Shown here: positions 21,526-54,114 of the stretch, in pieces
How the letters are laid out: each line of letters begins with the position of its first letter
How positions within the stretch are numbered: the first letter of the stretch is position 1
From: a virus
Lineage: Duplodnaviria > Caudoviricetes
IMG/VR virus record: IMGVR_UViG_3300005323_000042
Location: 17,433-81,432 of that record
DNA length: 64,000 bases
Reading direction: 5' to 3' (one strand)
The notes under the pieces: model-generated
Database searches by the model: none
Told to the model about the DNA's origin: nothing
Seen by the model: the letters and a program-made list of their open reading frames with translations, nothing else
Translations under genes and position numbers: made by a program

Positions 21526-21547
21526 GTATAATCGATTTTACTATTTA

Positions 21548-32107: not shown

Positions 32108-32130
32108 GGTGTGGATCTCCAAAAAATTAG

Positions 32131-33909: not shown

Positions 33910-33926
33910 TTTAGGGCTCGTGTATT

Positions 33927-35867: not shown

Positions 35868-36472
35868 TAGGAGTTCCCGTTATTGACATATTCATTATCA
35901 CCTGTATCAACTGTAGATTCATCAACATCAAATGGTCTGTATTTGGATGCATTGCTGAACTCTTCGGAAACACTTAAAACGGGGGAGAATTCTTTAGCGG
36001 TTTTTCTAGGATTCCTGTGTTTCATTGATTTAGTATAGTTGCTGGTTTCGGCGACATAATCCTGTTCACCGGTGTTGTGTGCTTTAGGTTGTGTTGAGAA
36101 TGTATCTGCGGATTCTATAGTTGTAGATGCTATAGTTGAGTCTGTACCACCTTTGTGTGTATTAGGAAGAACCTGTACGGTATGTGAATGCGATTTTAAG
36201 GCACTGTCTATACTTTCAATACTTTTATTTGTCTTTTCAAACTCTTTCTTTATTTCATCCTTTATATCTTTAGCCCACAACTCAAGATCGTCTTTATGAA
36301 CGTATTCGCTTGCGATAAAAGGGTAGAGGAGTATATATAGCTGTATTAACTGATCCTTGGTTACTTCTACAGGCGACAAGTTGAATGTCTGAAGCTTTTT
36401 AATATCACCGGCAAGCCTTACTGCCCAACTGCCAATTGTGGTAATGTCATCATTTAATTTCTGTTCAGCCAT
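35867..36472 (-). CDS. Hypothetical protein (201 aa)
   Basis: TAATG coupling to both neighbours. Confidence 0.65.
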   Translation of the reverse strand: MAEQKLNDDITTIGSWAVRLAGDIKKLQTFNLSPVEVTKDQLIQLYILLYPFIASEYVHKDDLELWAKDIKDEIKKEFEKTNKSIESIDSALKSHSHTVQVLPNTHKGGTDSTIASTTIESADTFSTQPKAHNTGEQDYVAETSNYTKSMKHRNPRKTAKEFSPVLSVSEEFSNASKYRPFDVDESTVDTGDNEYVNNGNS

Positions 36473-37437: not shown

Positions 37438-37445
37438 ATGAATAA

Positions 37446-39422
37446 TTAGATTTGTTTTCTGAAATTTGTATTATTAAGGGGTTTTCTCCGGATGATCCTT
37501 ATAGGAACGCTTTGTCTACGCTGTACAGTCCCGTTTTCAGGATTTGGTTTTAAAGACGATGTGGCATGTGAATTTAACCATATCTCACGTTCGCGTTCCT
37601 TGTCTCTCTGGAGTGCCTGGTCTTGCGGAGACAATTTTGGTTTGTTTGTTTTGCCTGCGATATGACCGAACTCTTTATTCTCAATAAACCGTATAGCATC
37701 TTGTATATGCGGCTTGCCAAGTGATGAATATTCCATATGGAAGCCGAACAAAGCCAGGATAAGCGCATCAAGACGGTGATCTCCCAGTTTGGGATCTCCG
37801 ACATACACAGGAAGCCCTTTGGGTGTTACATGATCTATTGCATAACCATGTAACTGTTTAATTAGTATTTCATCTTCATCACTGATTTCAATAAGACCGT
37901 TTTCAAACACACGGACCGCATTGTTAACCATATAAGGTTTACCAGGTTTCTTAACTACCTGCTTTGTCCATGGATCTCTTATCTCTACCATAGACGAGAA
38001 GTTAATTGCCTTTGCTTTCAATAGCATTTTATCTACTGAGTTAGGTTGTGCTTTTAACCCCATCTCATGAATATTTTCAATCTGACCGGCGCCATGTCCA
38101 TAATCGACATATATAAATGAGCATCTCCATTTTCTATTGAGTTCGCGTATTTTACGTACGGCCATTGTCTGTGTCCAGCCTTCAACTGATATTGACGCCT
38201 GGTCAACAATGCGGTATTTTTGTCTTGTAGTATCAAAACCCAGAACATATATCTGGGTGCCGTTCTGTGTGTCATTCCAGTCAACACCAACACCATACAC
38301 CCAGCCGGCAGCAACCTGTTGTGTTATGTAGGCATATTCTTCAATTGCCAGTTCAACAAACTGAGACTGAAATACTCCTTCGCCATCGGCAGAGAAGTCG
38401 GCAAGAACTTCATGCCTGTAACCGGCGTCTGTAAGCTGACTGCGGAAAGTCTGTTCCATTTCATAAGACCAATTCGGATGGAACCTGTCGGTAGGGAAGT
38501 AGAAACTAACAAAGTCAGGATCAAAACAACGGTCATAGAAATAGTCCTTCATACCTTTAGGTGTTGATGATACCACAAGTTCTACATTATTGTTTTCTGC
38601 AAGCAGGGCAATTACACTATCGATATCATATGAGTCGAGATATGAAGCTTCATCAAGAATAAGAATGTCAGCAGGCTGACCGCGTATAGCATCGGAACCG
38701 GAAACAAAACCCTTGATTGTAACGCCATTGGTAAGCTCAAGCATATCGTGCGGACTTTTACGCGTAGGTATTTTATTACCGACAACCATTTCCATCAGTT
38801 TTGGATTGCCATCAATAAGCAGTTCAACCATTTTAAATATTAAATCTATTTGCGATTGATTAGGTGTGAACAGTACAATATTAAATGCCGGTGATGTTGT
38901 GCTATACCAGGTGAATGCCCGATGAATAATCCTAACTGCCATCGATAATGTTTTTCCGATACGACGACCAGCACGAAATGCTATTCTTTTTGAACGGCAG
39001 CGTATCATCTGCGCCTGGTACGGAATTCCTTTTCTGGATGTCCTGCCCTTCCATCCGCCATGTCGTTGTAGAAGATTCTTTTCTGCCCATAAGACCGGAT
39101 CATATATTGACAAAACTTCATCAAGCTGATTATCGTTAAATCTGGTTTTTATCTGTTCGGGCAGAAGTTTTTCATAATACTCCTTACGCGGGTCGACAAG
39201 GAAAGCAGGATCATGCTGCATTGCCTGATAGACCCATTTTTTCTTATTTACTTTAGCCTCGGAAATCTGCTGATCGAATGTAGCCTTCAGAAATTCAGGG
39301 TCGGCATCGACAGACTGGTATTCCTCGATCTTTGCCTCGAGTTGTTCCTCGTCTTTATAGATCTCATAAAAATGACTATATGGATCAACTATAAATTTAT
39401 TTGGCTTTTTTGTTTTTGACAT
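37446..39422 (-). CDS. terL: Terminase large subunit
   Basis: Walker A GRRIGKT, Walker B ILILDEA, coupling motif SSTP, nuclease GVDWN and DHRLDALILA. Confidence 0.92.
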   Translation of the reverse strand: MSKTKKPNKFIVDPYSHFYEIYKDEEQLEAKIEEYQSVDADPEFLKATFDQQISEAKVNKKKWVYQAMQHDPAFLVDPRKEYYEKLLPEQIKTRFNDNQLDEVLSIYDPVLWAEKNLLQRHGGWKGRTSRKGIPYQAQMIRCRSKRIAFRAGRRIGKTLSMAVRIIHRAFTWYSTTSPAFNIVLFTPNQSQIDLIFKMVELLIDGNPKLMEMVVGNKIPTRKSPHDMLELTNGVTIKGFVSGSDAIRGQPADILILDEASYLDSYDIDSVIALLAENNNVELVVSSTPKGMKDYFYDRCFDPDFVSFYFPTDRFHPNWSYEMEQTFRSQLTDAGYRHEVLADFSADGEGVFQSQFVELAIEEYAYITQQVAAGWVYGVGVDWNDTQNGTQIYVLGFDTTRQKYRIVDQASISVEGWTQTMAVRKIRELNRKWRCSFIYVDYGHGAGQIENIHEMGLKAQPNSVDKMLLKAKAINFSSMVEIRDPWTKQVVKKPGKPYMVNNAVRVFENGLIEISDEDEILIKQLHGYAIDHVTPKGLPVYVGDPKLGDHRLDALILALFGFHMEYSSLGKPHIQDAIRFIENKEFGHIAGKTNKPKLSPQDQALQRDKEREREIWLNSHATSSLKPNPENGTVQRRQSVPIRIIRRKPLNNTNFRKQI

Positions 39423-39804
39423 TCGTTCTTTTAATCTTCTTTATAAGTGCGTTCGGTATCTTCAACCATTTGTCTTGTCTCTTAAATTGAATTACAATTT
39501 CCGGCTGACATTGTGTGAGATATGAGAAGAATTGATATATGAATTCAACCTGCAACGTTTTCTTTACGATGCCTATAAACAGGTTTATAAACAGTCCTTC
39601 ATAGCCTGTTATTATCTGATGACATACTTCACATAGTGTTATTCCATTGGTAAGTTCATATACAAGTTTCGGAAAGTCGACTTTGCGTTTTATATGATGG
39701 GCATTTATGGTTCCACGGCAATCACAGAGCTGACATTGAAATTTATCTCGTCTGAAAATCTTGTCGCGCCACCTGATATATGCTTTTGAATTATACTTAA
39801 ACAT
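39397..39804 (-). CDS. HNH endonuclease adjacent to the terminase
   Basis: WR..IF.RD.FQCQLC...NAHHIK...NGITLC..CH. The likely start is ATG 39804, overlapping the PhoH stop. Confidence 0.85.
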   Translation of the reverse strand: MFKYNSKAYIRWRDKIFRRDKFQCQLCDCRGTINAHHIKRKVDFPKLVYELTNGITLCEVCHQIITGYEGLFINLFIGIVKKTLQVEFIYQFFSYLTQCQPEIVIQFKRQDKWLKIPNALIKKIKRTNVKNKKAK

Positions 39805-40546
39805 CCTCGAACCTCTCAAGTATCGGTTCAATCAGTTTGTTACGTACTATATCTGAACTTTTAAAGTTGTTAAAGACGCCAATGCCATCTATATCGCTAA
39901 GTTTTTTTATTGCAAAGAGAAGTCCGTTTTCTTCTTTGCCCCTTTTTCTGTCGCACTGCATCAGATCGCCTGATATGAAATATTTTGTATTCTCGCCTAT
40001 ACGTGTAAGAAATGTTTTCATCTGTCCTTTTGTGCAGTTCTGCGCTTCTTCAAAGATGACAATAGCATTGTCAATATTAAGTCCTCTCATATATGCAAGA
40101 GGAACAACCTGAAGCAGACCACGTTCTCTGAGCTTGTTTACTTTCTTTTCACCAAGAATTTTTGAGAACAGGTAGACAGTTGAATATATATATGGGGCCA
40201 TCTTTTCATCGACATCGCCAGGTAGGAATCCAAGTTCTTCTTCTGATTCGACCGCTGGAGTTAATATTATTATCTGCTTGTATGGAGAGTTTTCTTCTCC
40301 GAATAATTCAATTGCTTTCCAGACCGATAAAAAAGATTTACCCGTACCCGCAGGACCAGCGCAAAGTGTGATTTCATTTTCTGACATTAGTTCCCAGAAT
40401 TTTTTCTGAGATTCATTGCGAAACTGTATGTTAACTCTCCTTATTTTTAATGACTTTTTTAAATCATCGTTTGATATATTTACTGATAAACGTTCGTCTA
40501 TTGGCTGCATTTCTCTGGGTGCAGCATTTCTTTTAGCTTTAGCCAT
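39797..40546 (-). CDS. phoH: PhoH-like ATPase
   Basis: GPAGTGKS, LGFLPGD, PLAYMRG, EEAQN, LTRIGEN and GDLMQCD motifs. Confidence 0.9.
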   Translation of the reverse strand: MAKAKRNAAPREMQPIDERLSVNISNDDLKKSLKIRRVNIQFRNESQKKFWELMSENEITLCAGPAGTGKSFLSVWKAIELFGEENSPYKQIIILTPAVESEEELGFLPGDVDEKMAPYIYSTVYLFSKILGEKKVNKLRERGLLQVVPLAYMRGLNIDNAIVIFEEAQNCTKGQMKTFLTRIGENTKYFISGDLMQCDRKRGKEENGLLFAIKKLSDIDGIGVFNNFKSSDIVRNKLIEPILERFEDV

Positions 40547-40587
40547 TGATTGTAGTCCGAAGTTGTGAGTGGAGGGCAGTATTTTTA

Positions 40588-41346
40588 TTAATACATACCG
40601 TAGTTAAGATTCCAGGCTTCGTTGCCCAGAGTGGAGCGAACATTGAATTGAGAGGTGCGGATTGCATTTAAAGATCGGGCGCGCATTGTCATTGCTGCCT
40701 CGCTGTCCTTGAAGTGTCCACCTACATCAGGAATAGACCATCGCCTACCGATCTTTGCCATCTTTAATGGAACATCTATTGCAAATCCGCCGATTACTCC
40801 GCCGACTGCTCCGCCGACAAAACCGCCGACGCTTGAACCGATTCTATACCCTAATGATGCGCCGACTTCACGGGCCATACCGACGCCTATACCGCCAAGT
40901 CCTCTCTGCTGCATCTCCTGATTTACAGACAGCAACATAAAAGCGCTCTGAGCAGATGGTGTTGCCATCTTTGTTCCGGCTTTTGTCATTATACTTTTTT
41001 TAGTGCCATTGATCATCTGCTCTTCGTATTCAGATGCAACGACATTATGTTTCGGCCATAATATTCCATGTATAGTCTCATCCCATTCGTTTGCAAGGCG
41101 TGTTCTTCCCGGCCTGTAACCGCGGATTTCTTCTTTGAGATTATTGAATATGGATTGGCGTTTACCTTTTAGTCCGGGCTTGATTTTATGTTTGTCGTAA
41201 AAATTTCTGACAGATTCATAGTTATTATAATAGAACTTTTCTTCTCGTTTCAGAAGAGACCTGCCAAGATAATATCCACCAAGACCAAGAGCGCCATAAC
41301 CAAACATTTTCCCGTAATTGACATTATCTTCTTGTGACATATACAT
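40588..41346 (-). CDS. Gly-rich hypothetical virion protein
   Basis: Intact ORF with glycine-zipper segments. Confidence 0.65.
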   Translation of the reverse strand: MYMSQEDNVNYGKMFGYGALGLGGYYLGRSLLKREEKFYYNNYESVRNFYDKHKIKPGLKGKRQSIFNNLKEEIRGYRPGRTRLANEWDETIHGILWPKHNVVASEYEEQMINGTKKSIMTKAGTKMATPSAQSAFMLLSVNQEMQQRGLGGIGVGMAREVGASLGYRIGSSVGGFVGGAVGGVIGGFAIDVPLKMAKIGRRWSIPDVGGHFKDSEAAMTMRARSLNAIRTSQFNVRSTLGNEAWNLNYGMY

Positions 41347-41349
41347 TGT

Positions 41350-42066
41350 TTATGCCTTTCTTCCGTATGTACTGGCAATTTTTCTAAATGGTCTTGCATA
41401 GCTAAGTCCGGCCCTGCGATATACACCCATGGCGACACCGCCCATTACTGCGCCTTTAAATGCGCCGCCAAACATTGATTCTCTTTCGCTGAAAGCACCG
41501 TAACCCGCACCAATCACAGCTCCACCAATAGCACCATGACCTGCACCACGTACAAATGCACTCATATTATTCGATAATGTTGCCGGAATTTTAGAATTCA
41601 TAGCATCCTGTGCACGCCGCATGTAATATGCCGTATCTCCCATCTGATAAGTATAAACGGTATTAACAGCGGAATCAAAAGCTGAGTTTGCATAGCCGGT
41701 AGCCCTTCCCGTGCTAAAAGCTTTATTATAGTTTTTATCTGCATTGGAAAAGAAATCACCAGCCTTACTAAAGGAGTTTTTAAAGCTAAAAGACCCAAAA
41801 TTTTTACCCAGATTGAGAGTAGGACTACCAGCAGCCTTGTAAGCATTGCCTACATTCTTAAATGTCCTACCGGCTTTTAATCCTATAGCAGCACCTGCGC
41901 CGATAAGGAATCCGGTTCCCAGCGAATAATTATCGTCACCAGCTTTATTAACGGCATAAGTGCCGCCCGCACCGAGTACGCCTCCGACAATACCTTGTCT
42001 TAGAACTTTTCCGCCGATTGGCAGAAGGTCTTTCCCAAATTTTGACCAACCACTGACACTAGGCAT
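41350..42066 (-). CDS. Glycine-zipper hypothetical protein
   Basis: SD AAGGAGG and multiple GxxxG hydrophobic segments. Confidence 0.7.
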   Translation of the reverse strand: MPSVSGWSKFGKDLLPIGGKVLRQGIVGGVLGAGGTYAVNKAGDDNYSLGTGFLIGAGAAIGLKAGRTFKNVGNAYKAAGSPTLNLGKNFGSFSFKNSFSKAGDFFSNADKNYNKAFSTGRATGYANSAFDSAVNTVYTYQMGDTAYYMRRAQDAMNSKIPATLSNNMSAFVRGAGHGAIGGAVIGAGYGAFSERESMFGGAFKGAVMGGVAMGVYRRAGLSYARPFRKIASTYGRKA

Positions 42067-42081
42067 ATATGCCTCCTTACA

Positions 42082-43008
42082 TTATATTATGTTTGTTTCT
42101 GTTGTTAAATACTTTTTTATACCATTGTGTTTTAATTGAGTGTACCGATCTATTTTTAAACGTAACTAACAACTTTTCATTTGAATCACTATGCGGATCT
42201 ATTTGTTTTAATAACTCAAGTTCTTCTTGTGACCAATAATTAACTTTAGATGGAATAATAGTTTTTCTTTTACGTTCAAGGTATGTTGTGTTATTTTTGT
42301 ATAAGTAATTTTGAATAGCAATTACATTATTGATTGAATTGTATTCGAGCCTGAAATGCTTCCATTAGTTGTTATTTGTTTATGTATAATACCGACTTCT
42401 GTTGAGAGTATATAATTAAGTCTTTCAATAAACGGTTTGCTTGCAGATACAATTACAAAATGTACCCCGGTTTTAGTCCCCAAATATCCATCACCGTCAA
42501 AATATCCAAGTATAAAACTGTGCCAAAACTGTTGTGGAATTTTATCAAAAACCTGTTCACTTAATGTTTTAGTTTTATTGGGGGTAATATGTTTGTTGAT
42601 TATGTCTTCATATAGTTGGGCGCATAAAATATTAATATAACAAGCACTGTTGTTTGTTGTTATCGATTTGTTAAACAGTTTGCCAAACTTAGACAAATGA
42701 TCACAGTCCTTGATTGCCAGACGTATATTGACAGATTTTCTTTTACTATGAAGACTTCCATCGGCAGCAATAAACCCTAATCAATATGCTTTTTCATTTG
42801 TATCAATTGTAGAGAAGTAATTGTTGTTGTATCTATTTAACCTTGGCGCACCTACTCCAGTTGGTTTTAATCCATATTTCTTTAACACAGATTCTGCTAC
42901 AAACGGCGTAATATTAAGTTGTTTAGCAATGTGGTTTGCGACTGTAATTCCACTTTTATATAAAGCTATTATTTCATTATTTCTTGATATAGTATTGAGT
43001 TTTTTCAT
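42082..43008 (-). pseudogene. Free-standing LAGLIDADG homing endonuclease pseudogene
   Basis: EKAY*LGFIAADG has TGA at 42781-42783 in place of the usual Trp. The second motif is FILGYFDGDG. A 1-nt frameshift at about 42355 precedes FRLEY...NYLYKN...LERK and a Myb-like WS.EE.ELL tail. Confidence 0.85.
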
Positions 43009-43014
43009 AAATAA

Positions 43015-45693
43015 TTACATTAGATGGTGTTGGTTGTGTTGTGACCAGATTTGAAGTCCTATACCTTGTGTAGATGTCATAACCTGTTCCCGCTTCTCTT
43101 TTATTCTTCTATAACCTTCGCCGCTTGTAGGCATGCCTCTCTTTATCGTGCGAAGATACGACATCTCCTCACTGAAAATTTTCCTATTCTCGTCAAGCTG
43201 TAATGCCATCTCTTCCAATGATGGTTTGTCTTTTTCATATGCCTGGAGTGTTTCAAGACCTGCTGTTTTGGGCAAAGATGATTTATCAAGTATTCCGCGC
43301 GCAATATCGTTTTCAACTCTTGCTCTTGTGCGTTCTACTTTTGCAATGAGAGATTCGTATTGACGAGGATTATAATTGACAATAAATGTTTTCTGTTGTT
43401 TCAAATTATCACGACTGATATACTGCAGATAACCACGCTCTGTACCGGTGTTGCCAAGATAAAATTGCATCTGTGCAACATGCTGTGGTTTTGGTTTTCC
43501 TTCTCTCTGAATGGCATTAAAAATTCCGCCCGAAACAGTTTTATAATCACCTATACCTTGGGCGGTTTTTATATCCATATGACCGGAAATACCGTGCTGA
43601 TAATTAACAGTAAGAACTTCTGCATTTGATGCAGTCCCGTTTGTAAGTTCCTGTGCCTGTAAATACTGATGCAATGCAGTACCGGCCTGTGCTGATGCTG
43701 CAACGTATTCGCTTGGCTCTTTATCTTCTTCTGTCATGTACTTGTATAGATCTGCGTCTGACAATCCGATCTTTGAAGCACGGACCATCTGATAGCGGTA
43801 TATATCTTCAGCTTCATTATATGAAGGGTTAAGTTGCGGATTTGGTCCTTGATAACCTGATCCAAAATCAGTCATCTTCTTTATATTAAATTTATTAACG
43901 GAACCAGGACCAGCATTAGGATGCAACCCCTCTATGGTATTGTATGAATCATCTTTGGCAGATATTCTATTCGAAACAGGCAACAGGCCAACCAGCAATT
44001 CGCCTGCAGAATAACCACCGAATGCAGCCATTGCATATTGCATTTTATCTGAGTTTAGAATATTCTTTATTTTGAGCAGTGTTTGATTTTGTGTTTTTGC
44101 TCTTTTTAAATATGCATTTATACCAAGGATAGCAGCATCGTCTGCAAATGAGAGTGCAAAATTAACAAGACCGTTTCTTTTATCTTCCTCACCGTTTTTC
44201 TTATCAGCGTATTTTTTAGCCGCACCAACAAAAGCTCCGAGAGTAAACGCAGTATACTTACCATTCCACCCTGAACCGAAATCAGTCATAGACTGAATAT
44301 TTGTTTTGTTAACGCCTCCGCCAGGATGCAAACCTTCGATAGTATTATAAGTGTCATCTTTGGATGAGATTCTTCCGGGTGGGGGAGCGTTATATCCTGA
44401 AGACAACTCACTATATAACATAGCAGCGCCTACTATACTGGCAGTGATACCGGCAGGTTTAAGCCACTTTTTATTTCTGCTTATCCATCCAAAGCCGTCC
44501 ATTGCAGCAGACCCCGATGATCCTGCTATGGACTTAATAATTCTGTCTTCTGCTTTCTTATTTCTGTTTAATATTTCTACTTCTATATCGCCGAAACTCT
44601 GTCCAGCATTGCGCATCTGTCTTACTTCATTTTCAAACCGGTTGAACCTGGAAGTATATTCGGCATTTGTATAACCATACTTGGTTCTCTTGATGCCGCC
44701 GAATTTATTCGATGCAAACACCTCATCAAGCGTATCCATGTATATTTGTTTACCCTTGATGTTTTTCTTTTTAGTTCCGCCCGGAACAGCATATAATCTT
44801 TTTTTACCTTTCTCTTCGCGTTTAACTTTATTAAAAGCCATATCGAGAAGAGAATTGTCTACCGACTGATGTGCCCATGTAGTTTGTTGTGAAGCAATCT
44901 TTTTAAATACATCAAGCCTGTTATCGCGAAGTGTTCCCTGTGTATCAAGTTCATGCAGCGAAGATGTAAGAAAATCATATACATGTTTATTCAAAGCAAC
45001 GTCACTGGCATCATGTAACTGTTCTCCAAGTCCAAGAGCCGCACCGAAGAAATTCATCTTTGTGCCGGTTATATAATCTCCTTTGAAATCAGTAAGTATA
45101 TTCTTTTCTTCAAGAATACTAAACGCATACTGTGCAAGATCTCTGGTATCGACGACGGCAACCTTGCCGACTTTCAGTCGTTGATTTATCTTGCTGATAT
45201 AGGATCTATATCCTTCATGGTTGATTTTAGATCTGTTTAACCTGACAGCGGTTGATAGTTTGCCTTTTGTAACACCGAACGCCGCCCTTAGTTCGCTGAC
45301 GGTTTCTTCCGGAAGTTCCTGTGATATTGCTGCTAAATCAAATCCAATATTATGGCCAATTATCAGCCCGCCACCTTTAAGGTGCGGGACAATGTCAGAC
45401 ATCAGAGACTCGGAGATACTCGATGTAAACTGACTGGACTTTATGTTGTCTTTATTGAACTGGTTAAGAACTTCAGAATAACCCTGTTTGCTGTAAACAG
45501 ACCACTTGGACATATCAGGGTTACTAAGATATTTAGCATTCAGACTTCCTGACTTGGCATTATACGGCAACGAAGCATATGAATATATTCTATGCTTCTT
45601 AAGCAGACCTCCGGTTTCGGTATCAAAGAAAATACCTCTATCCTTGGCAACTGCATTTAATTCTGCTATGTTAACCGGATATGGATTATTCAT
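43015..45693 (-). CDS. Fusion of a DnaQ-like 3'-5' exonuclease, a repeated linker and a PD-(D/E)xK nuclease (892 aa)
   Basis: FFDTETGG, IGHNIGFD and LHDASD at the N-terminus. GTALHQYLQ, GHMDI, DYKT and HVAQMQFY at the C-terminus. Two copies of RIS.KDD.YNTIEGLHP...MTDFGSG. Confidence 0.75.
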   Translation of the reverse strand: MNNPYPVNIAELNAVAKDRGIFFDTETGGLLKKHRIYSYASLPYNAKSGSLNAKYLSNPDMSKWSVYSKQGYSEVLNQFNKDNIKSSQFTSSISESLMSDIVPHLKGGGLIIGHNIGFDLAAISQELPEETVSELRAAFGVTKGKLSTAVRLNRSKINHEGYRSYISKINQRLKVGKVAVVDTRDLAQYAFSILEEKNILTDFKGDYITGTKMNFFGAALGLGEQLHDASDVALNKHVYDFLTSSLHELDTQGTLRDNRLDVFKKIASQQTTWAHQSVDNSLLDMAFNKVKREEKGKKRLYAVPGGTKKKNIKGKQIYMDTLDEVFASNKFGGIKRTKYGYTNAEYTSRFNRFENEVRQMRNAGQSFGDIEVEILNRNKKAEDRIIKSIAGSSGSAAMDGFGWISRNKKWLKPAGITASIVGAAMLYSELSSGYNAPPPGRISSKDDTYNTIEGLHPGGGVNKTNIQSMTDFGSGWNGKYTAFTLGAFVGAAKKYADKKNGEEDKRNGLVNFALSFADDAAILGINAYLKRAKTQNQTLLKIKNILNSDKMQYAMAAFGGYSAGELLVGLLPVSNRISAKDDSYNTIEGLHPNAGPGSVNKFNIKKMTDFGSGYQGPNPQLNPSYNEAEDIYRYQMVRASKIGLSDADLYKYMTEEDKEPSEYVAASAQAGTALHQYLQAQELTNGTASNAEVLTVNYQHGISGHMDIKTAQGIGDYKTVSGGIFNAIQREGKPKPQHVAQMQFYLGNTGTERGYLQYISRDNLKQQKTFIVNYNPRQYESLIAKVERTRARVENDIARGILDKSSLPKTAGLETLQAYEKDKPSLEEMALQLDENRKIFSEEMSYLRTIKRGMPTSGEGYRRIKEKREQVMTSTQGIGLQIWSQHNQHHLM

Positions 45694-45695
45694 TA

Positions 45696-46055
45696 TTAGC
45701 TGTGCAGGTACATTGTCTCAAGTGAATCTGAAGTGAAAGCAAATTTTCTGCGCCCGCATGCATATTGGCTGGCATTTTTAATTATAATTATATGCTGTTT
45801 ATGTTCGTCTTCGTAGGTATCTTTTATAATAGTTATATCAATTCTACTACCGATAGGCAGTGTGTTGATGAGACTTAATTGTAACTCACCACCTATATGA
45901 TCGTTATATATGTCAAGCCGTATGGATTTGGCGCGAACCTCATTGTCATTGAACTTGACAACAATCTCACATCCTTCGTATAGAGTACATGTAGAAATAT
46001 ATTCAACTGACAGACATTGCATAGAGTTACTGATGTTTGATTTTTTTAACTTCAT
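45696..46055 (-). CDS. Hypothetical protein
   Basis: Co-oriented ORF. Confidence 0.55.
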   Translation of the reverse strand: MKLKKSNISNSMQCLSVEYISTCTLYEGCEIVVKFNDNEVRAKSIRLDIYNDHIGGELQLSLINTLPIGSRIDITIIKDTYEDEHKQHIIIIKNASQYACGRRKFAFTSDSLETMYLHS

Positions 46056-46224
46056 GAAGCAACACAGAGTTTAATGCAGGTATGAGTTTTTCAATATATT
46101 CCTGAGACAGATATCCATCCTCAACTATAAAAGTCATCACAACTTTTTTAATCTTGCCGACAGTTAAAGATGCACCATCTTCACGGTCAACTGTCACCCT
46201 GTATTTTATTTTGTCTTTCTTCAT
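46027..46224 (-). CDS. Hypothetical protein
   Basis: Co-oriented small ORF. Confidence 0.55.
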   Translation of the reverse strand: MKKDKIKYRVTVDREDGASLTVGKIKKVVMTFIVEDGYLSQEYIEKLIPALNSVLLHEVKKIKHQ

Positions 46225-46237
46225 CTTGATTTTTCAC

Positions 46238-46522
46238 TTATCCAAAAAAGCCACTCTCACACATTGAAATGATGAGGCGTTTCTTGATAATTTCTTGATT
46301 ATATATTTCTTCAGTATCCATTATATATCTAAGCAAATCATACGCTATCTGTGCATGTTCTTCGGTCTCAAAGAAACTGTTAAATAATTTGCTACTTGAT
46401 TCATAAAGAGATATGAAATTTGTTATTGTCAGCATTGCTGCCAGATGCATTTTAAATTTATATTCATCATAGCATGCCGGACGTTCCAAAACGTATTCTT
46501 TTGGAATGTTTATCTGATACAT
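46238..46522 (-). CDS. Hypothetical protein
   Basis: TAATG coupling to the upstream gene. Confidence 0.6.
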   Translation of the reverse strand: MYQINIPKEYVLERPACYDEYKFKMHLAAMLTITNFISLYESSSKLFNSFFETEEHAQIAYDLLRYIMDTEEIYNQEIIKKRLIISMCESGFFG

Positions 46523-47385
46523 TATTTCTTCCCGTCTTCCTCTTCTACATAGGGAATCTCTGTAGCGTTGGCTATAGCTTCCTTTATTTCCCTAACAAAA
46601 CTTATATAGCTTTGTGTATTTTCTTTTTCGTTGTGTTTGCTACTTTGTTTTGACTTCCTTGTCGCCATAAGCAAATCTAAAATTTTTATTCTTTTCGCTT
46701 TTATTTTATCTTTAACACCGAGAGCCCAGTGCTCAACTTCTTCTTCTATTACTTCGCCGTCAGGTGAAAACTTGGTACGAAAACCCATCAACGTTGCATT
46801 CTCAGGTTTTGCAAGAGTGTTATTCAGCCTCATCTCATAGATAATTAGCTCTGATAATTCCTGGACCAGCATAAGTTCAGTATGATTTGTCGGATCGACA
46901 TCAAGTTCTTCCATAAATCTTTTTGTGTGGAATGCCAGTAAATCATATTCAACCAGACATCTTCTGCCAATCGGCGCCTTGCCGTGCTCATAATACCAAC
47001 AATCGTTATTGAACGGGCATTTCTCTGCAGTACATATCAACGGAACCACTGAGTTGACACCTGTGGCTAAGTTCCTATATGATAAAGAAAGACTAGTTGC
47101 TTCCTCCCTGGTAAGGACTATATCCTTGTACTTTTCTCTGTTAATAGTAAGATTTTCAAAAAAACCCGTTCTTGTTAACTGTCCCTCGGTTGTAAGTGCC
47201 ATATCGTTGAGATTTACAAGTGCCACACTGCCATATTCTGAACTGTCCTGCCTGGGCAATGTCTTCTTCAGACTCTCTTCAGGATGTTCTTCATTTTCAA
47301 GATTATTCTTTTTTATAGCTTCATTAACTTTTCTTGCAAATGCGGCAAAGTCATCGTTAAATATATTATTGTCTGCTTCGTTCAT
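46522..47385 (-). CDS. Putative terminase small subunit-like protein
   Basis: Cys cluster (C...KCPF...C...APIG..C..E) followed by helical segments; near the start of the operon. The likely start is ATG 47385 (GGAAG upstream). Function is inferred. Confidence 0.4.
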   Translation of the reverse strand: MNEADNNIFNDDFAAFARKVNEAIKKNNLENEEHPEESLKKTLPRQDSSEYGSVALVNLNDMALTTEGQLTRTGFFENLTINREKYKDIVLTREEATSLSLSYRNLATGVNSVVPLICTAEKCPFNNDCWYYEHGKAPIGRRCLVEYDLLAFHTKRFMEELDVDPTNHTELMLVQELSELIIYEMRLNNTLAKPENATLMGFRTKFSPDGEVIEEEVEHWALGVKDKIKAKRIKILDLLMATRKSKQSSKHNEKENTQSYISFVREIKEAIANATEIPYVEEEDGKK

Positions 47386-47593
47386 TCTCTTCCAGTATCT
47401 GTTTAATAATGCCAATCAGCTTATCATATTCGCCAGATTCATAAAATATTGTTTCAGCCTTGCGTACATAGGCACAGGAATCCGGATTTTCGTGCTTTAA
47501 TCGTTTTATCTTGACTAGACCATAGAAAGCTTCCAGATACGAACCCTTTACGGTATCCAGTAACTTCAGTATAGATTCTGATGTGAATTTCAT
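47366..47593 (-). CDS. Hypothetical protein, first gene of the leftward operon
   Basis: Co-oriented ORF next to the divergent intergenic region. Confidence 0.55.
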   Translation of the reverse strand: MKFTSESILKLLDTVKGSYLEAFYGLVKIKRLKHENPDSCAYVRKAETIFYESGEYDKLIGIIKQILEENERSRQ

Positions 47594-47815
47594 TAAATAC
47601 TATTATCGTTAAATATGAGCAGCAATAAAAAGACAGGTAAATGTATAATCAACAGGGAATTGCGTAGAATAACGTATCATACTAGATAAGAATCAGTTAA
47701 ATCGATTATACTATGTTGTTTTTAAGAAAAGATCGAGTATAGGCTTATAATAAAGTATCGAATTGATTATCTCTTTTTTACTTATTATATTTTACCCGAG
47801 TTTAACGGGAGTTAT

Positions 47816-48613
47816 ATGAAAAGGTTACTTGTACTATCACTTATTTTTCTCAATTCGCTATTATTTTCACAGGAGCCGAAGCTCTTAATGTCAACTATTG
47901 AAGAAAGTAATTATTCTATCGATCTTCTTCATGATATAAACAATATTGTTGTTGGTTATTATGAATTCAATAAAGTGACAGGTGTACTAGAGGTTTATAA
48001 TATTAATACTCTGGAAACTATTTATTTAAAAACATTTCCATCCGGCGATTTAATCAGCGGAATTCAGTTGATAAAGATCGATAATAATGATGTTTTGGTT
48101 CTTCGCGCAACAAGAGACGGAAGTCCAAATGTAGCATATACTTCATTGATAAATATTACAACGAACAAGATTATAAAAGAATGGCTGGCTATAGATAAAA
48201 GCTATAATGGTTATTCTTGTATCACGGATGATAACAGAATATTATTGTATATGTGGATATACAGATATACTGCAAATGATGTTCTTTCTGATACTGAGAT
48301 ATATGAACTTGGCAAGGCAACAACATCAGTAGCCAAGAATAATAATCCGGATGGGTATTCTCTTAAACAGAATTATCCGAATCCTTTTAACAGTATGACA
48401 AGAATAGATTATGAAATTTCTGTGCCGGGTGAGTATATGATTAATATCTTTGACGCAACAGGTAAGACAATAGAATCTTTAAAGATCCATGCTGAGGCAG
48501 CGGGCAGTTACAGTTATATGTGGCAGGCGAAAAATCTTTCGAGCGGCGTTTATTTTTATCAATTGGAAGGAGAACAAAACAGATCAACTAAGAAGATGAT
48601 TTACTTAAAGTAA
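47816..48613 (+). CDS. Secreted protein with an N-terminal signal peptide and a T9SS type-A-like C-terminal sorting domain
   Basis: Signal peptide MKRLLVLSLIFLNSLLFSQ. CTD motif LKQNYPNPFN..T.I.Y...NLSSGVYFYQL...TKKMIYLK. Confidence 0.85.
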   Translation: MKRLLVLSLIFLNSLLFSQEPKLLMSTIEESNYSIDLLHDINNIVVGYYEFNKVTGVLEVYNINTLETIYLKTFPSGDLISGIQLIKIDNNDVLVLRATRDGSPNVAYTSLINITTNKIIKEWLAIDKSYNGYSCITDDNRILLYMWIYRYTANDVLSDTEIYELGKATTSVAKNNNPDGYSLKQNYPNPFNSMTRIDYEISVPGEYMINIFDATGKTIESLKIHAEAAGSYSYMWQAKNLSSGVYFYQLEGEQNRSTKKMIYLK

Positions 48614-48809
48614 TTATTGAACTTTATAAGTTGCATCGAGGCGTAAGCTAAAAGACAGGAGTTTTCAATTTGGCTTCGAATAAAACTAAGGGCGAGACAA
48701 CATGCCACGCTAACAGATTGTGATACCCCCCATCACGATCTTATTCCCCCGCGAAGTCTGATTGTTATTTTTCCTCTTGTGAAATTCGATGGCTTAAAAC
48801 TATAGAGAA

Positions 48810-48852
48810 AAGCTGAATGCGTTCGTTAACCTTAGACGTGTTCGGCTTTTTT
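48810..48852 (+). terminator. Rho-independent terminator
   Basis: 13-bp stem AAGCTGAATGCGT/ACGTGTTCGGCTT with G-U pairs, followed by a T run. Confidence 0.7.
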
Positions 48853-48879
48853 ATTGACAATTAACAGGAAGTTGACAAT

Positions 48880-49080
48880 ATGAAACTAATTTCTCTTGAT
48901 ACGACTGAATATGAAGTCACGAATCCTTATCTGCTCATCAGTGGATGTAACATTATAGATTGTTTTCCTACACGTTTGGCTGCCGTAAGATTTGCCGAGA
49001 AGGATGGGATAAAAGAATATACTCTTTATACACGCAAACAGTATAAAAAGTATTTGCAGAAAATAAAAAGCCCGGTATAG
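48880..49080 (+). CDS. Hypothetical protein (66 aa)
   Basis: SD AGGA and a plausible protein sequence. Confidence 0.6.
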   Translation: MKLISLDTTEYEVTNPYLLISGCNIIDCFPTRLAAVRFAEKDGIKEYTLYTRKQYKKYLQKIKSPV

Positions 49081-49088
49081 TCCGGGCT
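49065..49088 (-). terminator. Terminator between convergent genes
   Basis: AGCCCGG-N6-CCGGGCT with a T run on the minus strand. Confidence 0.65.
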
Positions 49089-49093
49089 CATAC

Positions 49094-49762
49094 TTAATAA
49101 TTTGACACAAAAAGTGCCTGTTGTATATTTGGAAGATAGGGATTGATCCTCTCGCAAAATCGAATCAGGTCATCCTTAAACGCCGTAACACCACTTCCCA
49201 GCAATATAATTTTTAATATAGCACCTACAGCCAGCCCATAAGACTGTTCATAACCAACCGCGCTGTATGCCCCTCCTTCACTTATCACAATACTTCCCCC
49301 GGCATAATTAACAGTAAAAGATTTTTTGACTGCCTTGAAAATTTTTGAACATGAATTATACGAATTCAGCAATTTTACGGGCCATGTTGCTTCAGGTATA
49401 TCTGCATGTATATAAAGAATAAAAATAAATGTCTGAAGTAATTTTTCTTCATATAGAAACTGAATTGTACTATTTGGACCTGGAAAAATAGTTCTCTCAT
49501 ACTTCAATGCGGGGCAGTCAATACAATGTCCTTGCGCCCGCAGCAAGGCATAGTTTTCAGGAAAAAATATAGAAGGATTCACCTGTAGTACATCAGCAAT
49601 AGAATTAAGTTGTGAATATCTAGGTTCTCTTTCACCCGTTAAAAACCTTGTTAAATCACTTTCTGCTATTGCGGCGCTGGAAGAGAGTTCTTTTTGGCTT
49701 ATCCTTTTTTCCTTAATAAGCATAAGTAGAATATCGGAGAATTTTTCTGTTTCGCTTTTCAA
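49094..49762 (-). CDS. XRE-family HTH regulator with CxxC and a cupin-like C-terminal domain
   Basis: ISQKELSS...I.ESDLTRFLTGEREP HTH and CIDC. TTG start with SD GAGGT. Confidence 0.8.
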   Translation of the reverse strand: MKSETEKFSDILLMLIKEKRISQKELSSSAAIAESDLTRFLTGEREPRYSQLNSIADVLQVNPSIFFPENYALLRAQGHCIDCPALKYERTIFPGPNSTIQFLYEEKLLQTFIFILYIHADIPEATWPVKLLNSYNSCSKIFKAVKKSFTVNYAGGSIVISEGGAYSAVGYEQSYGLAVGAILKIILLGSGVTAFKDDLIRFCERINPYLPNIQQALFVSNY

Positions 49763-49891
49763 AACGACCTCGTTGAAAAATGTAAAAAATCCGTTATTTA
49801 ATATCCAACTATAAGTCCCTCCCCTTAGATATATCTAAGGAACCGAAATATAAATGAGATTAAATAAACATGTCAATGGTTTTGGAAAATA

Positions 49892-50515
49892 TTATTTCTG
49901 TTTTGGAAATTTCTCCAAAATCTTTTTCGGATTTGTTGCCATTAGATCGACAAGTCGCGGTACATTTTCGCCGGTGCCGAATACAAATAATCTTGTATTG
50001 TCTTTGTAAGATATAACATTTGCATCGCCTGAATTTACGTATGCAAAACTTCCGGGGGCCAGTGATACAAGTGGTCCGCCCTTATTGGAATACGAAACAC
50101 CCCCTTTAATACAGAAAACAAAAAAGTTAATTAAGAACTTCTTCGATAGACGACTTGTAACCGGCGGTTCGTTCATTATAGAATCAATATACAGCAATAG
50201 TGCAACACATTTATGTTGCTTGTCATAGAATAATAACTGAAAACGAAACGGATATTGAGCACTAATAGGTTTATTATACTCGTATCCGCATTGTGGGCAA
50301 TTGATATTGTTACTACTCATTAGGTCCAAAGGAAAAAACGACTCAACCTGCAGATTGAATGTGCGCATAATATCTATCAATTGGTCGTACTTTGGTTGTT
50401 TCCCCTGATTGAGCATTTTTGAAAGCTCACTATTTGAAATTCTTAATAAAGCGGCAGCGTCTTTCTGTGGTATATTAAGATTATCAATAGCACTCTGTAG
50501 GTACTTACTAAACAC
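49892..50515 (-). CDS. XRE-family HTH regulator with CxxC and a cupin-like C-terminal domain
   Basis: IPQKDAAALLRISNSELSKMLNQGKQP HTH and CPQC. GTG start with SD GAGGG. Confidence 0.8.
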   Translation of the reverse strand: MFSKYLQSAIDNLNIPQKDAAALLRISNSELSKMLNQGKQPKYDQLIDIMRTFNLQVESFFPLDLMSSNNINCPQCGYEYNKPISAQYPFRFQLLFYDKQHKCVALLLYIDSIMNEPPVTSRLSKKFLINFFVFCIKGGVSYSNKGGPLVSLAPGSFAYVNSGDANVISYKDNTRLFVFGTGENVPRLVDLMATNPKKILEKFPKQK

Positions 50516-50812
50516 TATATTCCCTCACTTTTAAAGTTCCCTAAAGAATAAACAAAATATTTCTCTTGCGGAATGGAAATATTAATTTCTAAAATGGCAA
50601 TCTAATTTATTAATATTCTTTGTCATTATCAATAGTTAAAGTGACATATAGCAAGGAGTAATATCTATCTCTTCTACTTGCGCGCGAAAGCGCCTACCTG
50701 CCAACTGGCCCGCCTAAATCCTAAATCCCATAAATAATATTTTATAATTTCAAAATTTGAATCGCTGAAATGAAAACCAAAAGTTTAAAATTAGACCGAG
50801 GCACCGGGTTAT

Positions 50813-50824
50813 CAATTTAAATTG
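50813..50824. promoter_or_regulatory. Palindromic operator candidate CAATTTAAATTG (copy 1)
   Basis: Perfect 12-bp palindrome overlapping TTGACT. Confidence 0.6.
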
Positions 50825-51050
50825 ACTGAAAACCAGTCTAAACAAGAATAAATTTCTCCTCAAAAAATCACAAGAATAGTATTAAAAAACTGTAATAACC
50901 GACTTGTTTATATAGCATTTGTAGAGTATTTACAGACGAAAGACCGGGTATTAAAAGATGGTTAGTATGGATGTTAATTGATATCCGTTGCGAGCCACCT
51001 AGGGTTCCGGTCTCTAGCAAAACTATTCACCATATATAAGGAGAAACAAT

Positions 51051-51320
51051 ATGGAAGCGAAAGAACTGCTTCATATGAACATTGCAGACTGTCTTCCAGA
51101 TCCGGATTTAGAATTCGGCTGGATGACACAGAATGAAGGGGTCAGATACTTGGCATACGTAACCGCAGCCGGTATGTATGCAGATATTGACAGCAGAGAT
51201 ATGTATCAATCTTTGCTGGACGTAGCTGCAGTTGCAAGGTTTCAGAACGTTGCTCAGACACCTGAAGTAGAATTTATACTTATTAACGATGTTATTGAAC
51301 ATTTAATCCGCACAAACTAA
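51051..51320 (+). CDS. Hypothetical protein (89 aa)
   Basis: Strong SD AAGGAG. Confidence 0.75.
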   Translation: MEAKELLHMNIADCLPDPDLEFGWMTQNEGVRYLAYVTAAGMYADIDSRDMYQSLLDVAAVARFQNVAQTPEVEFILINDVIEHLIRTN

Positions 51321-51385
51321 TCTAATCTAACTAATCACATAAACCTACCTTTTTAACCACTTAATCGTGGCTTGGGATAAGTGTG

Positions 51386-51427
51386 CAATTTAAGTTGACA
51401 ACCTACCCAATATTGCAATTTAAATTG
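51386..51427. promoter_or_regulatory. Tandem operator candidates (CAATTTAAGTTG at 51386, CAATTTAAATTG at 51416) upstream of the RNAP-like gene
   Basis: Two copies 30 bp apart; the first overlaps TTGACA. Confidence 0.65.
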
Positions 51428-51483
51428 ATTTCATTGAGCCAATTTATTAAACATTTTTACAAACAAATTTATAGGAGTAACTC

Positions 51484-54114
51484 ATGTTATATTCAATTTG
51501 GGCTCTTTTAACATTGCTCTTAGTAAGTCCTTCAATAGAGAAGGCAAAAGAGCTTCTCGTTATTGTTCACAATGGATATCTAGGTAAAAGCATCAGATTA
51601 TACTGGTATTATATCAGCATAGATGCTGTAGACAAGGCTAAGGAGATAATCCAAAAGCTAAATCATAATACAATCATTAGACAGATAATAAATCACAGCA
51701 AACTGGTAGAAGATTTACCGGTTGTTGTGGCTTATGATAATAAATACAGGCCAATCTGGTATTTATCGAAGAGAAAAGCGTACACGCAAACCATAATAGA
51801 TAAGGATGGAAATGAGGTAAAGGTTACGATTCCGCCAGTCTATCAAAGACCACAACTATTTCCGGAAGTTCTGGAAATGGTATGGAACATCATCGAGAAA
51901 GGAAAGAATATTGGGCAATCAGTCGGCATTAATTGGACCGACAAGAAAGGCCGGAAAAGATATAATACAATCGTATTGAAACCAGAAGAAAAGATCACGG
52001 TGAAAAGCCGTGAGTATATGTTAATTGCCAGTGGTAAAAATAAGACCTTCTACTGGCCAACAGATGTTCCGATTCCTTCTGAATTGAAACCTTGGATTGA
52101 ATCTAAAAACATTCAGTCCAAGAATGATTTTGTAGCTGGCCTGAAAAGGCATGGCCACACAGAATACATCAAAGACATTGATATTACTGTTCAGGAAGAA
52201 CATCAGTTCGATCTTGGAGCTGTAGTACTTCCAAGAGAGGTAGTTAAACAACTGTCGAAGAGATTTGGATTCGATGTGAATCTATCTCAAATCACTATAT
52301 GGTTCGAAGACGGAACATTCTTTAAGGGGACTGTTGAGTCCGATGAGTTCTCGAAAATGCCGGTTGGCTATTATGGTGGATTAAAATCCGCCATTAGCAA
52401 ATATGATGGTAAAAATAAGGTAAAGGCGCTAAAAATCGGCGCAAGAGCGATTAGAATGAACGTATTGTCTAATTATAGAGTGCAACCCTGGGAGGCAACC
52501 GCAAATCATCAGCAATTCACCTATACTGGCAATAAAATGCCAGTTGTAGTTGAACCGGTTAACAATGAGTTACTTGCAAAAATATGTCTTGGTGAGCCGG
52601 GCATCACTATGCAAGCCCAACAAGAATTCTTGTCCAATATCTCACGTGCTTTACATAAATTTAATGTATCTGGCTATGCGGGCCAGATTGGTGCATATTG
52701 CGATACGTCCTCTGCAAACTTTATTATCTTCACAAGCGACCGTAAACTCAAGAATCAGATCAAAGAATTCACATTTCTTTGGTCGCCATTCTTACCAGTG
52801 CATACTGACCTTATGAAGGTGCTGGTGAAATTTATGTATAAACCAGATTACGATGGTGTGATCTGTTTGAACACAAATGAACAAAATATGGAATGGATAG
52901 ATAGATGGTTTATCCAATACGCAGGTCGTGACTGCGACGGTGATGGGATTGTGATTACTGATGATCCAAGAATCATATCGCTTGCAAAGAATGTACCTGA
53001 GATTCAGTGGTACAACACAGTGCAATTCAAAGGCGAAACGCCAGTTGACTGTACTAATAGCCATCTTGCATTAATGATGTCTTATAGTAACATAATTCTA
53101 CATTCAGGAATCGTCGGAACATTCGACAACTTTGCCAGAAGAATAATAACCGAGAGGCCAGCACTTATGACCTGGGAATTAAGAGTAAGACTAACCAAGA
53201 TCATACAAATGGGTATAAGTTCGGTCAAGAAACACGTTGACGATGAGGATTTAAATAATCCGTTTATCATTTATAAGATTCTTGGTCTTGACTATAAGAC
53301 TAATGAATGGCTCAGGAAGTCAACAATAGATTTCAAAAAAGAAGTCGTTGAGGTTGTAAAGAAACTGAATGGAACAGTGCAGAAATTAATGTTCATTAAG
53401 GAAGGACAAGATCCTGAAGTGTTCAAATTAGAAATAACTGAACTCTATCAAAACCTACACGAAAAGTTGGATAAAATTGAACTAGCCGATCCAAAAGCAG
53501 TTAAGGCTTTCACCTCTGCGGTGGAAGCGGCGCAGGAGTTCACTTGCGAACGTTCTGCATACTTCAACATGAAAAATATCGGCAAGTCATTATTGGCAGA
53601 AGCAAAAGCTGTTGACATCTTGGCAGCAGAAATATTGCTAGCTGAGATCAAAGATCTCTGGTACAGAAAAGACGATGAATCTCAATCTATTGCCGAGGAA
53701 ATCGGCTTAGATTTCAATGAAATCAAAGACTTAATAGAATACCAGATAGAAACATCAGAGATAGAACCAAGAGCTTTATTTGGTGTTCTCTTATCAAATC
53801 TATCTTCAAGATTTCTTACCTCTATCATTTCAATGGAGCAAATGCTTCAACTTGATAGATTATCAGGACAGAATATGTACTGCTCATATTCCATTCCTGT
53901 TAAGAATAACACATTGCATGTTGGGCAGAGATTAACATTCGGCCAACTGTCAGCAAGAGTTCCAATGTCTCAGTTGTTGGCAGAAATGCCAATTTGTGAT
54001 TATTTGATTAAAGACATTAAGCAGGCTCAATATTACAATTGGGCCAGCAAAACAGGTAATATTCAGCAGTCAAATTATCTGTTGAAACTAGTACCTGTAT
54101 TGGACAATAATTAA
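51484..54114 (+). CDS. YonO/RdRP-like single-subunit two-barrel RNA polymerase (876 aa)
   Basis: Catalytic AGRDCDGD at 52921-52944. FDLGAVV...SQI...FKG upstream. GVICLN before the motif and ITDDPRII after it. Downstream GTFDNFA...QMGISSVKK matches the order of RdRP-family motifs. Confidence 0.7.
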   Translation: MLYSIWALLTLLLVSPSIEKAKELLVIVHNGYLGKSIRLYWYYISIDAVDKAKEIIQKLNHNTIIRQIINHSKLVEDLPVVVAYDNKYRPIWYLSKRKAYTQTIIDKDGNEVKVTIPPVYQRPQLFPEVLEMVWNIIEKGKNIGQSVGINWTDKKGRKRYNTIVLKPEEKITVKSREYMLIASGKNKTFYWPTDVPIPSELKPWIESKNIQSKNDFVAGLKRHGHTEYIKDIDITVQEEHQFDLGAVVLPREVVKQLSKRFGFDVNLSQITIWFEDGTFFKGTVESDEFSKMPVGYYGGLKSAISKYDGKNKVKALKIGARAIRMNVLSNYRVQPWEATANHQQFTYTGNKMPVVVEPVNNELLAKICLGEPGITMQAQQEFLSNISRALHKFNVSGYAGQIGAYCDTSSANFIIFTSDRKLKNQIKEFTFLWSPFLPVHTDLMKVLVKFMYKPDYDGVICLNTNEQNMEWIDRWFIQYAGRDCDGDGIVITDDPRIISLAKNVPEIQWYNTVQFKGETPVDCTNSHLALMMSYSNIILHSGIVGTFDNFARRIITERPALMTWELRVRLTKIIQMGISSVKKHVDDEDLNNPFIIYKILGLDYKTNEWLRKSTIDFKKEVVEVVKKLNGTVQKLMFIKEGQDPEVFKLEITELYQNLHEKLDKIELADPKAVKAFTSAVEAAQEFTCERSAYFNMKNIGKSLLAEAKAVDILAAEILLAEIKDLWYRKDDESQSIAEEIGLDFNEIKDLIEYQIETSEIEPRALFGVLLSNLSSRFLTSIISMEQMLQLDRLSGQNMYCSYSIPVKNNTLHVGQRLTFGQLSARVPMSQLLAEMPICDYLIKDIKQAQYYNWASKTGNIQQSNYLLKLVPVLDNN

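Follow-up and report, generated by a model that had tools for sequence, protein, structure and literature searches.

The phage gene analyzed here encodes a 265-aa precursor which carries at its two ends the marks of a type IX secretion system (T9SS) cargo, namely a Sec-type signal peptide at the N-terminus and a type A sorting domain at the C-terminus. Since both signals are present, the gene is read as encoding a protein exported by the T9SS of the host, and on the strength of its sequence the phage probably displays this product at the surface of the cell that it infects. The whole reading, considered fairly probable, is that of an accessory ('moron'-type) gene acquired by a member of a large myovirus lineage, most likely from an FCB-group bacterium, with a product exported by the T9SS. 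Most of what is known of the T9SS itself comes from work on gliding motility, on the degradation of polymers and on periodontal virulence. The window, i.e. the whole stretch of 64,000 nt that was analyzed, corresponds to bases 17433-81432 of an IMG/VR record of 81,432 bp.

Architecture and sorting signals of the precursor

The open reading frame is intact and agrees in position, strand and length with the one described in an earlier note on this DNA. The cargo protein consists of four parts: the signal peptide (residues 1-18), the passenger (19-175), a low-confidence linker and the terminal domain (187-265). Their coordinates are collected in Table 1 together with those of the neighboring features.

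Table 1. Features of the cargo gene, of the slot that holds it and of the PhoH gene (window coordinates)
Feature	Position	Strand	Basis or remarks
75-aa conserved phage gene, left border of the slot	47366..47593	-	orthologs in G001 (L162:15304-15522) and G003
Candidate sigma-70-like promoter, TTAAGA-18-TATAAT	47722..47751	+	consensus scan, 10/12 positions
Second promoter candidate	47763-47791		consensus scan
Shine-Dalgarno-like GGGAG	47807..47811	+	4 nt before the ATG at 47816; short spacing
Cargo gene	47816..48613	+	intact ORF, 265 aa
Sec-type signal peptide, residues 1-18	47816..47869	+	hydropathy, modelled helix 2-16
Passenger, residues 19-175	47870..48340	+	~157 aa, 17.9 kDa, pI 4.6, one Cys
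Low-confidence linker (ELGKATTSVAKNNNPDGYSLKQ)	48311..48373	+	pLDDT <50 at residues 167-183
Type A T9SS C-terminal sorting domain, residues 187-265, and stop codon	48374..48613	+	PF18962, TIGR04183, motifs, model
Terminator-like hairpin, 18-bp stem, A-run/U-run arms	48806..48852	+	~190 nt past the cargo stop codon
66-aa ORF, second gene of the inserted block	48880..49080	+	ORF list; candidate gene
Terminator of the regulator	49068-49089		consensus scan
XRE/Cro-C1-type HTH regulator, right border of the slot	49094..49762	-	Pfam HTH_26, PHROG regulator families
PhoH-like ATPase gene	39797-40546	-	201 bits

The N-terminus, MKRLLVLSLIFLNSLLFS followed by QEP, combines a basic n-region with a hydrophobic core of 14 residues, and the likely cleavage point lies between LFS and QEP. 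The call of a signal peptide is heuristic and combines hydropathy, the structural model and a homolog. The peptide reads MKR, 14 hydrophobic residues and then S at the junction with Q. The Kyte-Doolittle mean over 11 residues peaks at 2.3 at the N-terminus vs 1.23 at most anywhere past residue 25, residues 2-16 form a helix in the AF2 model, and an equivalent peptide is present in the bacterial homolog P0180 described below. The signal peptide claimed in the earlier note was upheld by these results. No lipobox Cys was found at the N-terminus of the cargo protein.

One public gene call begins at Met25 (241 aa) and hence loses the signal peptide; this alternative start at 47888 is preceded by AGGAG 12 nt upstream. 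The Met1 form is preferred because a sorting domain would be senseless without Sec export, because P0180 has the equivalent signal peptide and because the JGI/ENA record has 265 aa.

The C-terminal domain was checked with the family models for T9SS sorting domains, and both curated cut-offs were exceeded: Por_Secre_tail (PF18962) matched residues 187-262 of 265 with 43.1 bits (cut-off 27) and TIGR04183 gave 39.1 bits (cut-off 23). The type B model TIGR04131 (14.6 bits, cut-off 35) and CHU_C (16.8 bits, cut-off 27) stayed below their thresholds. All invariant columns of an alignment with 19 other domains were kept, i.e. NYPNPFN..T, D..G, G.Y, SG.YFY and the terminal K M ... K. The family scores and the kept motifs bear out the textbook QNYPNPFN...SGVYFY signal pointed out earlier, and, judged by its sequence, the C-terminus of the cargo protein is a genuine T9SS sorting domain of type A. 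The linker in front of it is the region in which removal of this domain by a PorU-type sortase would be expected from established T9SS biology.

The same domain could also be a generic FlgD-type Ig-like domain that has no sorting role and serves, for instance, in virion decoration or adhesion, an option which the earlier note had named as refuting its own reading. FlgD_ig (PF13860) indeed gave a sub-threshold match of 24.0 bits (cut-off 27), and FlgD was the sole solved structure seen by sequence, weakly (3osv, E 0.009). P0180 itself scores higher with FlgD_ig than with Por_Secre_tail. The AF2 model of the domain is a beta-sandwich (pLDDT 71-86) that superposes on the C-terminal domains of Tannerella forsythia mirolase (8qb1, Z 9.4) and P. 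gingivalis PorU (6za2, Z 9.2) with an rmsd of 2.2-2.3 A, but many other Ig/FnIII-type domains superpose on it equally well, so that the match to an Ig-like fold adds little, the fold being generic. Against a generic role, it is the T9SS models that pass their cut-offs and FlgD_ig that fails. The domain stands at the extreme C-terminus behind a linker in a protein that starts with a signal peptide, unlike virion proteins, and the gene lies outside the structural module and on the other strand. Moreover, PF18962 is present in more than 1600 of the domain's relatives in the databases. The generic Ig-like domain is therefore left with only a slight probability.

Like the bacterial type A cargos mirolase and PorU, the phage protein combines a signal peptide, a passenger and an Ig-like terminal domain of about 80 residues with the characteristic motifs. 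Unlike those domains, it is phage-encoded, shares 17-20 % identity with the solved ones and is known here from its sequence.

Genomic context of the cargo gene

The minus strand between approximately 3 and 47.6 kb of the window carries genes for terminase, portal, major head protein, tail sheath, PhoH, HNH and LAGLIDADG proteins. From 49.1 kb two XRE-type regulators on the minus strand are followed by plus-strand genes, including those for RNase H and a CCA-adding enzyme. The cargo gene and the 66-aa ORF form a small plus-strand block between the minus-strand late genes and the regulators. Relatives of the terminase (about 50 % identity) sit on contigs of 110-198 kb, and the carrier is a large uncultured contractile-tailed phage of a very large myovirus lineage.

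The slot was compared in related phages, IMG/VR records of 61-188 kb obtained by an alignment-based scan. In G001 the ortholog of the regulator is separated from that of the 75-aa gene by 220 bp with nothing between them, vs 1.5 kb here, and G003 has no opposite-strand gene in that slot. A TIGR04183 match was present in none of five related records (61-188 kb, one of them complete with terminal repeats). The cargo gene is thus inserted on the opposite strand between conserved phage neighbors and is absent from the related phages, which are the two traits of a moron or accessory gene.

The 66-aa ORF, for which no Pfam family and no counterpart in the relatives were found, entered the slot together with the cargo gene; just upstream of it lie an AGGAAG site and TTGACA-like boxes, and its end overlaps the terminator of the regulator. 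Convincing flanking repeats marking the insertion were not found, and the intergenic DNA of the slot could not be aligned by eye to that of G001. The CAATTTAAATTG palindrome does not occur near the cargo gene, no Rfam family was detected in 47400-49200 and no tRNA in the window. Since a tyrosine integrase was found neither in the phage record nor in the five relatives, the classic logic of lysogenic conversion is not obviously applicable, and expression during lytic infection is likelier than expression from a prophage.

A 12-kb relative (L282:80-1238, plus strand) carries ORFs of 211 and 167 aa with signal-peptide-like N-termini, both of which sit just upstream of the ortholog of window positions 46522-47415. 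Further accessory proteins that are exported may thus be encoded at this junction in other phages.

The cargo gene lacks phage relatives, and the record is a linear metagenomic fragment estimated to be 61 % complete. Both facts could also be explained by an assembly chimera, in which a fragment of host DNA was joined into a phage contig. The gene is, however, situated 47 kb from the start of the window and is flanked by syntenic phage genes at most 250 bp away on one side and at most 500 bp on the other, and its composition is ordinary for the phage (GC z -1.1, GC3 z -0.3), as is its synonymous codon use (z +0.25, rank 42 of 66). In JGI/ENA data the identical 265-aa protein occurs on three contigs. 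The longest of these measures 181,523 bp, and the same length is given for the longest contig with the identical terminase and PhoH. A 32-kb Logan contig carries the 241-aa version. The slot comparison, the ordinary composition and the recurrence of the identical protein on several contigs make a chimera or a host flank very unlikely, close to negligible, and the misassembled host fragment that the earlier note had allowed for can be set aside.

The two promoter candidates lie in the 222 bp that separate the cargo gene from the divergent late operon. They are weak, since the region contains 13 promoter-like sites vs 8.3 +/- 2.5 in shuffles, and a sigma-70 consensus of host type may not count here. 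The terminator-like hairpin past the cargo gene was missed by the consensus scan because of its long loop; RNA folding gave it -20.6 kcal/mol (z -2.6), a stability matched by 3 of 200 shuffles.

The use of Shine-Dalgarno (SD) sequences was estimated for the phage as a whole. Cores of at least 4 nt precede 48 % of the first start codons and AGGAG-type cores of 5-6 nt precede 23 %, vs 6 and 0.3 %, respectively, at internal start-like codons. The strong SD use noted earlier for this phage is therefore real.

The 12-mer AATCGATTATAC, which contains the palindrome ATCGAT, was found at 47699-47711 (+), 21526-21538 (-), 29661-29673 (-) and 37094-37106 (-). The flanks of the four copies are unrelated. 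One copy is situated 116 nt upstream of the cargo gene, another is intergenic and precedes a terminator-like hairpin, and two are inside ORFs. Its 13-mer form, with up to 2 mismatches allowed, gave 8 matches vs 4.1 +/- 1.6 in shuffles. The element may be a recognition site or a part of phage promoters.

The passenger and its proposed role on the cell surface

AF2 modelling with a 17-row alignment (pLDDT 65 overall, 57-81 in the passenger) folded the passenger as an all-beta, acidic domain of 12 strands arranged in approximately three propeller-like blades. A single-sequence AF2 model (pLDDT 47) was discarded. The passenger was matched by VIA-align to three-blade parts of WD40/PROPPIN propellers (KlAtg21, Z 9.6; WIPI2, Z 9.2) and to the clostridial lipoprotein 4l1n (161 residues; Z 9.3 with 125 residues aligned). 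The ESM Atlas model gave TM values of 0.6-0.7 to propeller parts, and Foldseek agreed. As both the scores and the model are middling, the passenger is described, with low confidence, as probably a propeller-like, non-enzymatic binding module.

A word-based search of 5.8 billion proteins yielded 1609 relatives of the cargo protein. Apart from its own record, most of the best matches listed span only about the last third of it; a few extend further, into LVIVD/Kelch propeller proteins with the same tail, at an identity that is not convincing. An exhaustive phmmer search with residues 20-180 against 1.84 billion representatives returned two matches besides the phage's own record, both of them marginal: P0180 (E 2.6e-4, 25 % identity over 132 residues) and an FG-GAP repeat protein. 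Close whole-protein relatives were found in none of GenBank phages, IMG/VR and PHROGs, and a paralog of the passenger was not found in the phage.

P0180 (MGE5363473.1, 271 aa), annotated as 'FlgD immunoglobulin-like domain containing protein' in a 'Bacteroidota bacterium' MAG, is the one detectable full-length relative of the cargo protein. The two proteins are colinear, with 31 % identity over 226 residues, and agree in size and in how their parts are arranged (signal peptide, beta domain, linker, sorting domain). P0180 has a signal peptide of its own, ending in VNA before Q, as well as its own sorting domain; unlike the cargo protein, it is encoded on a 72-kb contig of a bacterial MAG. The existence of a colinear homolog with the same architecture indicates a family of small stand-alone proteins, and at the level of sequence it argues for this family being functional.

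The orphan passenger resembles an incomplete propeller, and the gene could thus stem from the recent capture of part of a host surface protein, a few blades with a sorting domain, and travel with the phage as a neutral hitch-hiker of no use to it, whether its product is exported or not. Its absence from all five relatives, the BLAST extensions into LVIVD/Kelch propeller proteins with the same tail and a GC content slightly under the phage mean are in keeping with such an origin. Nevertheless, the frame is intact with both sorting signals kept, the codon use is indistinguishable from that of the phage, the same sequence is found on several contigs, and the existence of a homolog that shares its size and architecture at only 31 % identity speaks for a stand-alone family and not for a random truncation. 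A useless hitch-hiker is thus thought to be unlikely, though not negligible.

The preferred reading remains that of an accessory gene whose product is exported by the host T9SS, and established T9SS biology suggests how this would proceed. The precursor would pass the inner membrane via Sec with removal of the signal peptide, and the cargo would fold in the periplasm. Its C-terminal domain would then be recognized by the host T9SS (SprA/Sov translocon, PorV shuttle) and the protein passed through the outer membrane, after which a PorU-type sortase would cut off the sorting domain. The 18-kDa acidic, beta-rich passenger would stay anchored on the surface or be released. There it might alter the surface of the infected cell for the benefit of the phage, e.g. 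by masking receptors against superinfection or against the loss of progeny on debris. Such a benefit from masking or exclusion is a guess by analogy, made with low confidence.

The analogy is with the phage accessory genes lom and bor of lambda and llp of T5, whose products reach the outer membrane by host export routes and there alter the properties of the surface or obstruct the receptor used by the phage itself. Lom, Bor and Llp use Sec/Lol/Bam in Proteobacteria, not the T9SS, and show no kinship with the cargo protein in sequence or fold; the likeness is to be understood as functional only.

An alternative role would rest on the sorting domain instead of the passenger. As a decoy or blocker, the active domain could dock on the host T9SS and occupy it, and the passenger would be of little importance. 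The small size of the passenger and the retention of all conserved motifs in the C-terminal domain are compatible with this. On the other hand, a folded passenger of 157 residues has been retained, in an architecture conserved with P0180, and the candidate host lineages make from 90 to more than 150 such cargos. With so many competing cargos per candidate host, one extra substrate is unlikely to jam the T9SS without special features, and none are visible in it, which renders the decoy decidedly unlikely.

The accessory-gene reading can also be taken to its most specific form, in which a phage of an Ignavibacteriota-type (non-Bacteroidia FCB) host displays a self-associating, propeller-like protein that shields the receptor, i.e. 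superinfection exclusion dependent on the T9SS. This form is speculative and rather improbable. If true, it would be among the first functional entry points to the biology of phages and hosts in this poorly studied group.

Candidate hosts and other viral cargos

The taxonomy of the best hits had been proposed in the earlier note as a check on the host. Among the best 80 genome matches to the sorting domain (38-47 % identity), 44 are labelled Ignavibacteria or Ignavibacteriota. The others include Balneolales-type bacteria (6), Zixibacteria (3), KSB1 (2) and Neomarinimicrobiota (2), single matches to Kryptoniota, Calditrichia, Chloroherpetonaceae, Chlorobi OLB5 and 'Chitinophagaceae', and genomes with unspecific or odd labels. 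The expected leaning to Ignavibacteria was thus observed, but at an identity of this order and in the company of several other lineages. SprA scored above its cut-off in all five genomes examined from the lineages with the closest sorting domains. Five other genomes contained from 15 to at least 150 such sorting domains each, the figure of 15 coming from a 1.2-Mb partial genome.

Bacteroidia use little SD, and the strong SD use of the phage had been taken in the earlier note to indicate a non-Bacteroidia FCB host. The same crude method was applied to about 40-66 genes per genome to determine how many of the first starts have a core of at least 4 nt. The value for the phage, 48 %, is accompanied by 35-58 % in related phages and approached by Melioribacteraceae (41 %), Calditrichia (42 %) and an Ignavibacteriota MAG (35 %). 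Zixibacteria, KSB1 and Kryptoniota are intermediate (29-31 %), whereas two Ignavibacteriaceae (20-26 %) and Balneolaceae (19 %) are low; the sample contained no Bacteroidia. The SD use fits some of the candidate lineages and not others, and the argument is weaker than originally stated. The GC content of the phage, 37.5 %, comes near the 39 % of the Ignavibacteriota and Melioribacteraceae samples.

Host DNA was searched for with 20 kb (32001-52000) of the 81-kb record in 401 genomes from the class to which an Ignavibacteriota MAG belongs; one of them (G379) is unpublished and enters the analysis only as a unit of this tally. Almost all matches listed were short, with 69-97 % identity, and lay over the PhoH gene and two sorting-domain motifs; two other weak short matches were listed, and none of those listed was spacer-like. 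The core of the PhoH gene (39965-40126) shows 69-83 % DNA identity to many genomes of the Ignavibacteria-class sample. The homologs of the PhoH protein were phage-type sequences and gave no pointer to the host.

The subtype of the sorting domain was matched at E <= 1e-17 by 30 of the 81 genomes of a phylum-level sample, 12 of the 19 genomes that were already in the class sample vs 18 of the 62 others. One genome labelled Chitinophagaceae (G413, the genome of L108) had 82 strong matches to the Ignavibacteria-type sorting domain; in view of their number, either this label may be mistaken or the subtype extends beyond the non-Bacteroidia. A direct tie between the phage and a host was not found. 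By a soft inference, the host is an FCB-group bacterium, probably from outside the classical Bacteroidia, with Ignavibacteriota as the single most likely group.

Phage-encoded T9SS cargo has been known since 2020, when Cryophage was described with three variable genes encoding proteins with T9SS type A sorting domains (Bellas et al. 2020, Nat Commun 11:4403, PMC7468147). Its authors propose that the host T9SS is hijacked for secretion, possibly for competition or control of superinfection (PMC7468147). Both cases concern an uncultured phage and an accessory gene product that ends in a type A sorting domain. The cargos of Cryophage are recognizable enzyme or PA14 proteins (endoglucanase, GH39, PA14), whereas the passenger found here is a small orphan beta domain of propeller-like appearance. 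The present phage is also of a much larger myovirus lineage, and its sorting domain is of the NYPNPFN / SGVYFY type, with the best genome matches listed mainly labelled Ignavibacteria. These features make the present case distinct; since the concept of phage T9SS cargo is already published and recurrent, no new question is opened by it.

The recurrence is seen in IMG/VR, where at least 78 other loci have the same strict type of sorting domain, mostly behind signal peptides, and several of them are on contigs of 160-210 kb. The passenger is shared by none of the 78 viral proteins with such a C-terminal domain. Phage genes for T9SS cargo suggest that phages of the FCB group routinely re-dress the surfaces of infected cells. 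To these the cargo gene adds a case from a very large myovirus, for which the best-matching genomes are labelled mainly outside the named Bacteroidia, and an orphan passenger. The cargo protein might be used to mark the host and, as a test protein, to probe T9SS recognition beyond the model organisms.

Viral proteins of 255-333 aa with a signal peptide and a T9SS domain on IMG/VR contigs of 51-210 kb (L178, L225, L227, L232/L233) share the module 'VELTSF...W.T..E.N..GF.(V/I)ER'. They represent a recurrent type of phage cargo that is unrelated to the passenger of the cargo gene.

The HNH endonuclease and LAGLIDADG-like genes of the window lie near the terminase gene, at 39397-39831 (-) and 42322-42696 (-). 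Several homologs of the terminase, of approximately 1050-1110 aa, have LAGLIDADG and intein-type domains, which suggests that inteins occur in the terminase family of this phage.
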